Positions 6,902 through 43,005 of a stretch of 64,000 nucleotides of DNA are shown in pieces. The number at the start of each line of letters is the position of its first letter. The stretch's first letter is position 1. A program made the position numbers and the translations under genes. The notes beneath the pieces were generated by a model. It had not been told where the DNA came from. It saw only the letters and a list, made by a program, of their open reading frames with translations, and did not search any database. The stretch is from NCBI RefSeq assembly GCF_016026235.1, contig NZ_CP065613.1. One strand, written 5' to 3'. This DNA comes from Escherichia coli. Lineage in GTDB: Bacteria > Pseudomonadota > Gammaproteobacteria > Enterobacterales > Enterobacteriaceae.

Positions 6902-6985
6902 GTAGGCCAGCTAAGGCGTTCACGCCGCATCTGGCATTTTGCTCTCAATGCCTGATGCGACGCTGGCGCGTCTTATCAGGCCTAC
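6902..6985. repeat. REP/BIME palindromic units (two, opposite orientation)
   Basis: gcctgatgcgacgctggcgcgtcttatcaggcctac and a degenerate inverse copy between convergent gsk and ybaL. Confidence 0.85.
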
Positions 6986-12058: not shown

Positions 12059-12553
<495 letters not shown>

Positions 12554-12659
12554 TTAAACAAAAAAACGAAGCAAGCATACGCCTGATGGCGGTCCAAAAA
12601 AAAGAGTCATCTTGCCTAAGAGTATTGGCAGGATGGTGAGATTGAGCGACAATCGAGTT

Positions 12660-12743
12660 ACACCGTCGCTTAAAGTGACGGCATAATAATAAAAAAATGA
12701 AATTCCTCTTTGACGGGCCAATAGCGATATTGGCCATTTTTTT
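12660..12743 (+). ncRNA. chiX: ChiX (MicM/SroB) Hfq-dependent small RNA
   Basis: Sequence acaccgtcgcttaaagtgacggcataataat...gggccaatagcgatattggccattttttt matches my recollection of ChiX; TTGGCA-17bp-GACAAT promoter at 12625-12653; terminal hairpin plus T-run overlapping the ybaP stop. Confidence 0.8.
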
Positions 12744-13536
12744 AGCGCAACATTTGCGGTAAATTCCCTTCTCCATACAGGTGTAGTGCACCGACCGCGA
12801 CCACATATCGCCCCGGCGGCATGGCGCGTAATTTATCCCGCCAGGTGAGATTTCGCTGATGCATCAGCACATCGTACAGCGACTGACTGAACGTATTGGG
12901 CAGCGTTATTTCATTATTTTGCGGCGGCGCATTCAGCCACCAGCTCATCATTTGTTGCAGCAACCGTGCGTTGGTATGCCAGTGGGTCAGCGTATCGTCC
13001 AGCAGCGCCAGTCCTTTGTCAGGGAGCTGGAGCAACATGGCAATCTGGTTTTCAGCCCCTTCCAGTTCAATCACGGGTTTATGTTGTTGCTTCGCCGCCT
13101 GCAATAGCTGGTAATCGATACCGTATTCTGCCCGCAGCCCCAGTTTTTGCGCCTGCGTCGCCTGAAGAACCATCGCGATTTGCCACAGCGGTTGGGTAGA
13201 AAAGAGTGAGGGAGAAATGCCCATCTCCTGGCTAATGTGCTGCAGATTTTGGAGTTGCTCCTCGCTAATGCGCTCTTCCAGCGCCTCGCAGGCAGGCAAA
13301 TTAGCAAAAGGCGTATCGCTGGTGGAAACATCCGCCTCGACGATCAGCGCATCGGCGTTTTTGAGCTTTTTGAGCAAACGGGTGGGCAGGGGAGCCATAT
13401 CGTGGCTACCCATATGAATACTGCCAATCAGATGAAAATGGCGATTGCCGGGAAGGGTGATATCGATGGCAGGCCAGGTGTAATGATTACCGCGCAGCGC
13501 GGCCCAAAGCGTTTTTACCCGGTACAACAGATCCAT
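12742..13536 (-). CDS. ybaP: TraB-family protein
   Basis: 264-aa ORF recognised as YbaP. Confidence 0.85.
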   Translation of the reverse strand: MDLLYRVKTLWAALRGNHYTWPAIDITLPGNRHFHLIGSIHMGSHDMAPLPTRLLKKLKNADALIVEADVSTSDTPFANLPACEALEERISEEQLQNLQHISQEMGISPSLFSTQPLWQIAMVLQATQAQKLGLRAEYGIDYQLLQAAKQQHKPVIELEGAENQIAMLLQLPDKGLALLDDTLTHWHTNARLLQQMMSWWLNAPPQNNEITLPNTFSQSLYDVLMHQRNLTWRDKLRAMPPGRYVVAVGALHLYGEGNLPQMLR

Positions 13537-13673
13537 ACGACCTCCCTTTGTGAAATATCATGCTAGCGCGCGGTGAGGGATGGCGCAAATGGAGTTGGGG
13601 ACTTGTTTAATGTGTTTGTATGATTCAGTATGTTCTTGTATCGCTATTCACAGGGAAGCAACAGTTAAAAACT

Positions 13674-14015
13674 ATGAAACAGGCAACAAGAAAACCGACG
13701 ACACCCGGAGATATTCTTCTCTATGAATATCTGGAACCGCTCGCTTTGAAAATCAATGAGTTAGCAGAGTTGCTGCATGTTCATCGTAATAGCGTCAGTA
13801 CACTGATCAATAATAATCGTAAACTCACCACTGAAATGGCATTCCGTCTGGCGAAAGTTTTTGATACCACAGTCGATTTTTGGCTAAACCTTCAGGCGGC
13901 AGTTGATCTTTGGGAAGTTGAAAACAACATGCGCACCCAGGAAGAATTGGGACGGATTGAAACAGTGGCTGAATATTTGGCACGCCGTGAAGAGCGTGCA
14001 AAAAAGGTCGCGTAA
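13674..14015 (+). CDS. ybaQ: HigA-like XRE-family HTH DNA-binding protein (solitary antitoxin-like regulator)
   Basis: 113-aa ORF from MKQATRKP; helix-turn-helix with C-terminal HigA-type region; upstream in-frame ATG at 13620 is probably not used. Confidence 0.8.
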   Translation: MKQATRKPTTPGDILLYEYLEPLALKINELAELLHVHRNSVSTLINNNRKLTTEMAFRLAKVFDTTVDFWLNLQAAVDLWEVENNMRTQEELGRIETVAEYLARREERAKKVA

Positions 14016-14037: not shown

Positions 14038-14275
<238 letters not shown>

Positions 14276-25875: not shown

Positions 25876-28286
25876 TTGCACGTTGGTTCTGGCGCGAATG
25901 GCGTTCGCCGTCGCTATTAATTGTCTGGCTGGCGCTAAGCCTGGCGGTGGCCTGCGTGCTGGCGCTGGGCAATATCAGCGATCGCATGGAGAAGGGCTTA
26001 AGCCAGCAAAGCCGTGAGTTTATGGCGGGCGATCGGGCGCTGCGCAGTTCGCGCGAAGTGCCGCAAGCGTGGCTGGAGGAAGCGCAAAAGCGCGGCCTGA
26101 AAGTCGGCAAGCAGCTGACTTTCGCCACCATGACATTTGCAGGCGACACACCGCAGCTGGCGAACGTTAAAGCGGTGGATGATATCTACCCGATGTATGG
26201 CGATCTGCAAACCAATCCCCCTGGCCTGAAACCGCAGGCGGGCAGCGTATTGCTGGCCCCACGCCTGATGGCACTGCTTAACCTGAAAACGGGCGACACC
26301 ATTGACGTGGGCGATGCCACCTTGCGGATTGCCGGAGAAGTGATTCAGGAACCGGATTCCGGTTTTAACCCCTTCCAGATGGCTCCGCGTCTGATGATGA
26401 ATCTGGCGGATGTCGATAAAACCGGAGCCGTGCAGCCGGGGAGTCGGGTCACCTGGCGCTATAAATTCGGCGGCAGCGAGAACCAGCTCGACAGCTATGA
26501 GAAATGGTTGTTACCTCAGCTTAAACCCGAACAACGCTGGTACGGTCTGGAACAGGACGAAGGCGCGCTGGGGCGATCGATGGAACGCTCGCAACAGTTC
26601 CTGCTGCTTTCGGCGCTTCTGACCTTGCTGCTGGCAGTGGCAGCGGTGGCGGTAGCGATGAATCATTACTGTCGCAGTCGCTACGATCTGGTGGCGATCC
26701 TCAAAACACTGGGGGCAGGGCGAGCGCAACTGCGTAAGCTAATCGTCGGTCAGTGGTTGATGGTGCTGACGCTTTCAGCCGTTACCGGTGGGGCGATAGG
26801 CCTGTTGTTCGAAAACGTGTTGATGGTGCTGCTCAAGCCCGTTCTGCCTGCTGCACTACCGCCAGCCAGCCTCTGGCCGTGGCTGTGGGCGCTTGGCACC
26901 ATGACGGTCATCTCGCTGCTGGTGGGGCTACGACCATACCGCTTGTTGCTGGCAACGCAGCCTTTACGCGTATTACGTAATGATGTGGTAGCGAACGTCT
27001 GGCCGCTGAAGTTTTATCTGCCGATTGTCAGTGTGGTGGTTGTGCTGCTGCTCGCCGGATTAATGGGTGGCAGCATGCTGCTTTGGGCGGTGCTGGCGGG
27101 CGCGGTAGTACTGGCTTTGCTGTGCGGTGTGCTGGGCTGGATGCAGCTGAATGTACTTCGCCGCATGACGCTGAAATCGCTACCTCTGCGCCTGGCGGTT
27201 AGCCGCCTGTTACGTCAGCCGTGGTCAACGTTAAGCCAGCTTTCGGCATTTTCGCTCTCCTTTATGCTGCTGGCGCTGTTGCTGGTATTGCGTGGCGATC
27301 TGCTCGACCGCTGGCAGCAGCAGCTACCGCCAGAAAGCCCGAACTACTTTTTAATTAACATCGCCACAGAACAGGTAGCACCGCTAAAAGCGTTCCTCGC
27401 GGAACATCATATAGTCCCGGAATCGTTTTATCCGGTGGTGCGGGCGAGACTGACGGCGATTAACGGCAAGCCGACAGAAGGCAATGAAGATGAGGCGCTC
27501 AATCGCGAACTCAATCTTACCTGGCAAAATACGCGGCCCGATCATAATCCGATTGTCGCCGGTAACTGGCCGCCAAAAGCCGATGAAGTATCGATGGAAG
27601 AGGGGCTGGCGAAACGCTTAAACGTTGCCCTCGGTGATACCGTGACTTTTATGGGCGATACCCAGGAGTTCCGCGCTAAAGTGACCAGCCTGCGCAAAGT
27701 GGACTGGGAAAGTCTGCGGCCTAATTTCTATTTTATTTTCCCTGAAGGGGCATTAGACGGGCAACCGCAGAGCTGGCTTACCAGTTTCCGCTGGGAGAAT
27801 GGCAACGGCATGTTGACGCAACTCAACCGCCAGTTCCCGACCATTAGCCTGTTAGACATTGGCGCGATTTTAAAACAGGTCGGCCAGGTGCTGGAGCAGG
27901 TAAGTCGGGCGCTGGAGGTGATGGTGGTGCTGGTCACCGCCTGCGGTATGTTGCTGTTGCTGGCACAGGTGCAGGTGGGAATGCGTCAGCGTCATCAGGA
28001 GCTGGTGGTGTGGCGCACACTCGGTGCGGGGAAAAAACTGCTGCGTACCACGTTGTGGTGTGAGTTCGCCATGCTTGGGTTTGTTTCTGGCCTGGTGGCC
28101 GCAATTGGTGCGGAAACGGCACTGGCAGTGTTGCAGGCGAAAGTGTTTGATTTTCCGTGGGAGCCAGACTGGCGATTGTGGATTGTTCTGCCGTGCAGCG
28201 GTGCGCTGCTGCTGTCGCTTTTCGGCGGCTGGCTGGGCGCGAGACTGGTTAAGGGTAAGGCGCTGTTCAGGCAGTTTGCGGGGTGA
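25872..28286 (+). CDS. ybbP: FtsX-like ABC transporter permease
   Basis: 804-aa polytopic ORF overlapping the ybbA stop by 4 bp. Confidence 0.85.
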   Translation: MIARWFWREWRSPSLLIVWLALSLAVACVLALGNISDRMEKGLSQQSREFMAGDRALRSSREVPQAWLEEAQKRGLKVGKQLTFATMTFAGDTPQLANVKAVDDIYPMYGDLQTNPPGLKPQAGSVLLAPRLMALLNLKTGDTIDVGDATLRIAGEVIQEPDSGFNPFQMAPRLMMNLADVDKTGAVQPGSRVTWRYKFGGSENQLDSYEKWLLPQLKPEQRWYGLEQDEGALGRSMERSQQFLLLSALLTLLLAVAAVAVAMNHYCRSRYDLVAILKTLGAGRAQLRKLIVGQWLMVLTLSAVTGGAIGLLFENVLMVLLKPVLPAALPPASLWPWLWALGTMTVISLLVGLRPYRLLLATQPLRVLRNDVVANVWPLKFYLPIVSVVVVLLLAGLMGGSMLLWAVLAGAVVLALLCGVLGWMQLNVLRRMTLKSLPLRLAVSRLLRQPWSTLSQLSAFSLSFMLLALLLVLRGDLLDRWQQQLPPESPNYFLINIATEQVAPLKAFLAEHHIVPESFYPVVRARLTAINGKPTEGNEDEALNRELNLTWQNTRPDHNPIVAGNWPPKADEVSMEEGLAKRLNVALGDTVTFMGDTQEFRAKVTSLRKVDWESLRPNFYFIFPEGALDGQPQSWLTSFRWENGNGMLTQLNRQFPTISLLDIGAILKQVGQVLEQVSRALEVMVVLVTACGMLLLLAQVQVGMRQRHQELVVWRTLGAGKKLLRTTLWCEFAMLGFVSGLVAAIGAETALAVLQAKVFDFPWEPDWRLWIVLPCSGALLLSLFGGWLGARLVKGKALFRQFAG

Positions 28287-28300
28287 TGACTGGTGTTAGA

Positions 28301-28603
<303 letters not shown>

Positions 28604-28632
28604 GAACAGTGTGCATTTTGGCAATAAATCTG

Positions 28633-28657
28633 AAACCAACTGTCATGTCGGTTTTTT
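28633..28657. repeat. 25-bp direct-repeat copy A (aaaccaactgtcatgtcggtttttt), 24/25 identical to copy B at 29109-29135
   Basis: Read directly from the sequence; the two copies bracket the small-ORF module. Confidence 0.7.
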
Positions 28658-28658
28658 A

Positions 28659-28687
28659 AAGGCCGAAGGTGGTAAACCTTCGGCCTT
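28659..28687 (-). terminator. Strong hairpin (11-bp stem aaggccgaagg / ccttcggcctt) 17 nt downstream of the small-ORF stop
   Basis: Perfect stem with a 7-nt loop; on the minus strand it is followed by a second weaker hairpin with a U-rich tail (copy A). Confidence 0.5.
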
Positions 28688-28703
28688 AGCTACGTTTCCT
28701 CAG

Positions 28704-28787
28704 TTATTCAATAAACTGACGGATCAGTTCCAGCAGCGCGATTAGCGCCTTAAGCACGATGAGAACTTTATCGAGAAAAGTTTTCAT
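28704..28787 (-). CDS. Candidate 27-aa type I toxin-like peptide (DinQ/TisB-like), MKTFLDKVLIVLKALIALLELIRQFIE
   Basis: ATG with a GGGAG RBS 8 nt upstream; amphipathic single-helix peptide; the LIALLELIR stretch matches my memory of E. coli DinQ; structured 3' end; candidate antisense RNA nearby. Confidence 0.45.
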   Translation of the reverse strand: MKTFLDKVLIVLKALIALLELIRQFIE

Positions 28788-29012
28788 CCGTTGCTCCCTT
28801 AAGGGAGAAAGACAATCACAGCTTACCCTTACGTTGCCTGTAACTATGATTTTCTTCATGTGCTAGATGAGGACTGCCTCTCTCCAAATTAGAGCACCAG
28901 AATCAGCACCACCTGTATCCTGACCAGGACTTAAAAGTACTTTTCCGCACTGCGGTAATCCCTTGAGGCAGTATCACTACTAGCGTCGGGATTGTATCGC
29001 CAACATAGCTGT

Positions 29013-29135
29013 TTGAATATGTAGGCATCCTGACTTATAATTCACTTGCTAGATGAGGACTGTTTCATTTCTGCCCGGAACCACCAAGTCTTGGGCGGAA
29101 AAAATAAAAAAACCGACTGTCATGTCGGTTTTTTT
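29013..29135 (+). ncRNA. Candidate small RNA: TTGAAT-17bp-TATAAT promoter (29013-29041), predicted start near 29048, terminator hairpin plus T7 at 29111-29135
   Basis: Near-consensus sigma-70 promoter and intrinsic terminator bracket about 88 nt with no ORF; the 5' end carries a 16-nt core (tgctagatgaggactg, 29047-29062) identical to 28861-28876 in the presumed leader of the toxin-like ORF. Confidence 0.35.
29109..29135. terminator. Bidirectional A-tract/hairpin/T-tract terminator (also terminates selU); direct-repeat copy B
   Basis: aaaaaaaccgac-tgtcat-gtcggttttttt; 63 nt downstream of the selU stop on the minus strand. Confidence 0.65.
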
Positions 29136-29198
29136 ATATCTGTATTCTGGTGCAACCATTCTGTTCTCACGACAATCGCCGTTTCAGAATACCGCCCA

Positions 29199-30308
<1,110 letters not shown>

Positions 30309-42924: not shown

Positions 42925-42933
42925 TGAATTTAC
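42925..42933. repeat. Target-site duplication TGAATTTAC (right) of the IS1 insertion
   Basis: Identical to 42148-42156. Confidence 0.9.
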
Positions 42934-42936
42934 TAC

Positions 42937-42963
42937 AAAAAAAGCCACGGTATAAACCGTGGC
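42937..42963 (-). terminator. Rho-independent terminator of allE
   Basis: On the minus strand: stem gccacgg / ccgtggc with loop, followed by 7 T (A-run at 42937-42943 on plus). Confidence 0.7.
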
Positions 42964-43005
42964 AAAATCCAACATAGCTAAAAATAATCAGGCGAGTGGT
43001 ATGAC

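Follow-up and report, generated by a model that had tools for sequence, protein, structure and literature searches.

A chromosomal chiX gene, identical to that of K-12, in the ybaK-ybaP intergenic region of Escherichia coli

Does the gap between the divergent ybaK gene and the convergent ybaP gene of this Escherichia coli chromosome hold a gene that a track of open reading frames fails to reveal? A reading of the letters alone had placed there, on a 64,000-nucleotide stretch of contig NZ_CP065613.1 (RefSeq assembly GCF_016026235.1; the whole stretch is hereafter called the window), the Hfq-dependent small RNA ChiX (MicM), with a promoter and an intrinsic terminator of its own. The results described below indicate that positions 12660-12743 of the plus strand are almost certainly the chromosomal chiX gene, in a strain that is 2.4% diverged from K-12 in this neighbourhood. 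The locus is made up as follows.

12059-12538, minus strand: ybaK, Cys-tRNA(Pro) deacylase (PF04073, tRNA_edit, 81 bits), divergent, the left bound of the intergenic region
12660-12743, plus strand: ChiX (SroB/MicM/RybC) sRNA, 84 nt
12742-13536, minus strand: ybaP, TraB/GumN family (PF01963, TraB_PrgY_gumN, 150.5 bits), convergent

The identity, coordinates and strand given by the sequence-only reading were borne out by the two comparisons suggested with it, a scan with covariance models and an alignment to K-12 chiX. When the whole window was scanned with Rfam 15 at the gathering threshold, cmscan returned at exactly 12660-12743 (+) a full-length match to RF00368 (sroB; model positions 1-83 of 83), with 82.1 bits against a gathering score of 44 and E = 1.8e-10; the family name sroB and the names ChiX, MicM, and RybC all denote one RNA (PMC4098024). 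The sequence of this interval, ACACCGTCGCTTAAAGTGACGGCATAATAATAAAAAAATGAAATTCCTCTTTGACGGGCCAATAGCGATATTGGCCATTTTTTT, is identical at 84 of 84 nt to the annotated K-12 gene b4585, which the curated MG1655 record describes as an ncRNA, 'small regulatory RNA ChiX', at 507204-507287 (+), flanked by ybaK (-) and ybaP (-; 507286-508080). The intergenic location between ybaK and ybaP likewise holds, since the gene order of the window, ushA-ybaK-chiX-ybaP-ybaQ-copA, is that of K-12. Identity extends over the 121 nt upstream of chiX, and in the alignment of window positions 12539-12760 with K-12 it reaches 221 of 222 positions, the sole difference lying inside ybaP. Judged by every criterion that a sequence can supply, the copy is a member of the RF00368/ChiX family and identical to the type gene, and the chiX of the window is thus already known. 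It shares with K-12 ChiX the RNA, promoter, terminator, flanking genes, overlap with the ybaP stop codon, and seed complementarity to chiP, chbBC, and dpiB; no difference is found in the gene or its upstream region, whereas the surrounding genes are 0.4-3.4% diverged.

This identity stands within a region that has otherwise drifted. An ungapped alignment of the surrounding 6001 nt with K-12 contains 146 mismatches (2.4%), with ushA and copA 3.3-3.4% diverged, whereas the 205 nt composed of chiX and the ybaK-chiX spacer contain none (P ~0.006 at the regional rate). Across the species, chiX is present as a single copy in 5422 of 5426 complete E. coli genomes, with at least 99% identity in 5011.

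The transcription signals and the parts of the RNA, all on the same strand as the gene, are arranged in the following order.

12625-12630, plus strand: -35 hexamer TTGGCA of the chiX promoter
12648-12653, plus strand: -10 hexamer GACAAT, after a 17-nt spacer and 6 nt before the A at 12660, within the conserved block TTGAGCGACAAT
12663-12681, plus strand: 5' hairpin (RNA nt 4-22), 8 bp with the loop UAA
12682-12703, plus strand: A/U-rich single-stranded linker with four consecutive ARN triplets, AAUAAUAAAAAA, at 12685-12696
12704-12717, plus strand: seed UCCUCUUUGACGGG (RNA nt 45-58), for target and decoy pairing
12716-12743, plus strand: intrinsic terminator, an 8-bp stem-loop (12716-12735), an A and T7 (12737-12743)

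The promoter, which had been read from the letters as TTGGCA-17-GACAAT at 12625-12653, is found there and is conserved across the Enterobacteriaceae: the block from TTGGCA to TTGAGCGACAAT is kept in Escherichia, Citrobacter, Enterobacter, Kluyvera, Pluralibacter, Phytobacter, and Shimwellia, whereas Serratia, Rahnella, and Hafnia have TTGCCA at -35 and a differing -10 region. It is the sole sigma-70-like site within 12400-12900, a count that alone is not above chance (0.8 expected in shuffles). The terminator proposed with it is also confirmed, the ybaP stop codon TAA sharing 2 nt with its T-run. The 84-nt RNA is predicted to fold into two hairpins (-24.1 kcal/mol, z = -3.9 against dinucleotide shuffles), and in the centroid fold the segment between them is single-stranded. 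The 3' end has a counterpart in K-12 Term-seq data, in which a strong end at 507287 (+), among the strongest of the region, is labelled as the primary end of chiX, antisense to ybaP; by the constant offset of 494,544 between the two sequences, K-12 position 507287 is window position 12743.

To collect homologues of the element, exact matches to its 16-nt core, GAAATTCCTCTTTGAC, were sought in 100,044 species genomes; at least 120 loci were obtained, in a sample without genera such as Salmonella and Klebsiella. Among the matches listed, 36 loci belong to the Enterobacterales, and in all 36 the core is followed by a GGCC...GGCC hairpin and a T-run, and the element occupies the gap between ybaK (-) and ybaP (-); they represent 33 distinct homologues. 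About 85 other listed matches, from unrelated phyla, were set aside as chance occurrences of the core, being without the terminator hairpin and the T-run. The 36 Enterobacterales loci come from Escherichia albertii, Citrobacter, Enterobacter, Kluyvera, Pluralibacter, Pseudocitrobacter, Phytobacter, Superficieibacter, Shimwellia, Cedecea, Serratia, Rahnella, Rouxiella, and Hafnia. Because an exact match to the 16-nt seed was required by the search, the invariance of the seed in the resulting alignment is not evidence of its conservation; the linker, the terminator, and the location, by contrast, are conserved without having been selected for by the search.

The 5' hairpin is present in every homologue when each sequence is folded separately, and the sequence of its stem varies by genus: CCGUCGCU/AGUGACGG in E. 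coli, CCGAAGG/CCUUCGG in Enterobacter, CCGGGGC/GCCCCGG in strain BIGb0383, and AACCGU/ACGGUU in Serratia. In an alignment of 34 sequences, the two-hairpin structure has 88.8% of its cells paired, as against 25-43% when the partners are slid by 1-3 columns, and 9 of 15 pairs show compensatory changes (six of the seven counted in the 5' hairpin and three of the eight in the terminator stem, where 99.6% of cells are paired), a covariation reached by none of 500 shuffles. RNAalifold applied to the MAFFT alignment recovered the terminator alone, because the alignment had left the divergent stems of Serratia, Rahnella, and Hafnia out of register; per-sequence folds with explicit counting of pairs were therefore used instead, and the pairing of 76% for helix 1 is an underestimate owing to the same alignment. 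The other Enterobacterales ChiX RNAs thus resemble that of E. coli in their ybaK/ybaP site, A/U-rich linker, terminator hairpin with T-run, and 5' hairpin, and also in their seed, for which sameness was required by the search. They differ in the sequence and length of the 5' stem, in the -10 region in Yersiniaceae and Hafniaceae, and in having fewer ARN triplets (2-3).

It may be asked whether the hairpin and T-run are merely a terminator, serving an upstream gene or shared with the convergent ybaP, without any independent sRNA gene. A terminator-like site abutting the ybaP stop codon would fit such an arrangement, but there is no upstream gene on the same strand for it to serve, ybaK being divergent, and in the minus-strand direction CGTCAAAGAGG, rather than a T-run, comes after the hairpin, which is thus not a canonical terminator for ybaP. 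The conserved promoter, placed 35 nt ahead of the mapped 5' end, and the covarying 5' hairpin are likewise at odds with a terminator alone, as are the Term-seq data, in which the 3' end is classed as the primary one of chiX, and the discrete 84-nt RNA, starting at the equivalent of 12660, already published for the identical K-12 sequence. We accordingly consider this explanation extremely improbable. No more credit can be given to the locus coding for a small protein, for which three frames do exist mechanically, namely, a 21-codon plus-strand frame from the AUG at 12697 (MKFLFDGPIAILAIFLAQHLR) and minus-strand frames of 94 and 55 aa. None of the three has a Pfam match. The AUG at 12697 is preceded by AAUAAUAAAAAAA, which contains no Shine-Dalgarno sequence, and Serratia has AAG or GAG in place of this ATG; the frame runs through the terminator, so that the 84-nt RNA would contain no stop codon for it. 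The minus-strand frames would be broken by the indels that homologues carry in the 5' hairpin and the linker.

A different objection concedes the gene and supposes that it is silent or functionally altered in the source strain, for example, through loss of its targets. Over the promoter, the RNA, and all of the upstream intergenic sequence, the strain does not differ from K-12, in which ChiX is abundant and constitutive, and almost every E. coli genome carries the gene; on these grounds, such a state appears very improbable, if slightly less so than the two preceding alternatives. The reading of 12660-12743 as an intact chiX gene is therefore the one followed below.

ChiX is described in the literature as a constitutive and abundant sRNA that contacts Hfq through both its U-tail (proximal face) and its ARN linker (distal face), and because it binds both faces it is a class II sRNA. 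The corresponding sequence features, a U7 tail after the terminator together with ARN motifs, are present in the window. The tail of seven U is the expected binding site for the Hfq proximal face, and the ARN run of the linker probably provides the distal-face site; a run of four triplets was reached by 65 of 2000 shuffles, a modest enrichment, and the homologues contain 2-4 triplets. The class II sRNAs MgrR, CyaR, and McaS resemble ChiX in combining a U-tail terminator with distal-face ARN motifs and in being strong Hfq competitors, although they are unrelated to it in sequence, seed, and targets. ChiX differs from these three sRNAs in being constitutive, and in being controlled mainly by decay induced by a decoy or sponge, rather than through its own transcription.

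The targets of ChiX are located outside the window, and pairing was hence computed on the K-12 target sequences, where the seed finds Watson-Crick runs of 12-13 nt; the pairing-site sequence in the chiP, chbBC, and dpiB regions is CGUCAAAGAG. The leader of chiP (ybfM) contains a perfect 12-nt complement, CGUCAAAGAGGA, which ends 8 nt before the AUG and covers the Shine-Dalgarno sequence. The chbB-chbC spacer also contains a perfect 12-nt complement, CCCGUCAAAGAG, from which 7 further base pairs extend the duplex, and the dpiB leader contains one of 13 nt, UCCGUCAAAGAGG, at -37 to -25. Duplexes were restricted to ChiX nt 37-60, as full-length RNAs had given unrealistic long-range duplexes. Under this restriction, the calculated energies are -21.0 kcal/mol for chiP (3 of 500 shuffled targets as good), -28.5 kcal/mol for chbBC (0 of 500), and -22.1 kcal/mol for dpiB (1 of 500). 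Directly upstream of chiP, the K-12 record also annotates ChiZ (b4808), a ChiX sponge derived from the chiP 5' UTR, which contains the 12-nt ChiX pairing site of the chiP leader.

In the predicted course of regulation, the sigma-70 promoter of the gene would drive synthesis of the 84-nt ChiX, composed of the 5' hairpin, the ARN linker, the C/U-rich seed, and a Rho-independent terminator with a U-tail. The seed would then pair across the Shine-Dalgarno sequence of chiP, leading to a translation block, Rho-dependent termination, and decay of the mRNA, by which the chitoporin would be kept silent when chitosugars are absent; the dpiB leader would be paired in a like manner. On induction of the chb operon by chitobiose, the spacer between chbB and chbC, with its longer complementarity, would serve as a decoy that brings about the decay of ChiX, and chiP would be de-repressed. 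Published work is the basis of this scheme: in the absence of chitosugars, chiP is continuously repressed by ChiX, and the chb mRNA induced by chitobiose titrates ChiX into rapid degradation (PMC4098024); strains deleted for chiX de-repress chiP, and ChiZ, a fragment of the chiP 5' UTR, acts as a second, reciprocal ChiX sponge, with Rho being involved (PMC7815308). From published values, loss of ChiX would be expected to de-repress a chiP-lacZ or chiP-mCherry fusion 30- to 70-fold. We infer that the same regulatory events occur in the source strain. The initial description of ChiX as a repressor of chitoporin and chitobiose mRNAs stands for chiP, but gives only half of the picture for the chitobiose operon, where the chbBC spacer is mainly a decoy that triggers ChiX decay (PMC4098024, PMC7815308).

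The overlap with ybaP raises a further question, that is, whether the two convergent genes affect each other. Read on the minus strand, ybaP ends in TAA (12744-12742), and this stop codon overlaps the T-run and 3' end of ChiX by 2 nt, as it does in the K-12 annotation (507286-507287); in most Enterobacteriaceae, as in E. coli, the ChiX T-tract takes in the stop codon, and the ybaP frame closes equally far from the seed. A search of the minus strand from the ybaP stop codon to ybaK found no canonical terminator, only a weak site at 12585..12572. Because no canonical terminator follows the stop codon, the 3' UTR of any ybaP mRNA would be perfectly antisense to ChiX, including the seed. It is conceivable that the ybaP 3' UTR acts as a cis-encoded ChiX sponge, or that convergent transcription causes interference, but we hold a functional role of the overlap to be unlikely. 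Our literature search found no published study of the antisense overlap between the ybaP 3' UTR and ChiX; one RIL-seq study re-labels its 'ybaP.EST3UTR' reads as ChiX. A K-12 plus-strand entry at 507468 (about window position 12924), antisense to ybaP, is listed in supplementary file 2 of a previous report (PMC7815308) and would fit a degree of read-through from ChiX into ybaP.

Several other features of the window were noted in the same scan. The ybaQ-copA intergenic region carries a tandem REP pair at 14041-14118 and 14142-14219 (Rfam naRNA4, 87.1 and 86.2 bits), and the ungapped alignment shows the same two copies in K-12; the REP copy number does vary between strains, since O157:H7 PV15-279 is 101 bp shorter at this place. 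A further naRNA4 match lies at 6905-6982, and a full-length match to the enterobacterial sRNA STnc480 at 42933-42999 (+), with 87.1 bits against a gathering score of 72. The adjacent ybaQ appears as a mechanical ORF of 131 aa at 13620-14015 (+), as compared with 113 aa (342 nt) annotated for K-12 YbaQ, and this gap in length is only an ambiguity of the upstream start codon.

Between ybbP and mnmH, the AgrB antisense RNA of Rfam is matched at 29049-29137 (+), with 53.6 bits against a gathering score of 40, and for window positions 28250-29250 PGAP annotates 'dinQ: damage-inducible type I toxin DinQ' in matching genomes. The full-length 28250-29250 region is present in only 1115 of 5426 E. coli genomes, and ES036 (28324-28366, -) and two naRNA4/REP matches (28370-28447 and 28470-28548, +) are found in the same ybbP-mnmH region. 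This region has the appearance of a second type I toxin-antitoxin locus of the dinQ/agrB kind, variable between genomes; the K-12 dinQ-agrAB locus is situated elsewhere, in the arsR-gor region.

Finally, the statement that chiX is invisible to an ORF track applies equally to standard annotation. PGAP-annotated RefSeq records show ybaP alone at the chiX site, whereas the curated K-12 record marks the gene, and thousands of PGAP-annotated E. coli genomes leave chiX unmarked. To look at the ybaK-ybaP gap through its ORFs alone is thus to overlook an abundant regulator that also competes strongly for Hfq. ChiX is a textbook case of an sRNA controlled by target mimicry, and the present copy, identical to the reference, has little import beyond that for annotation.
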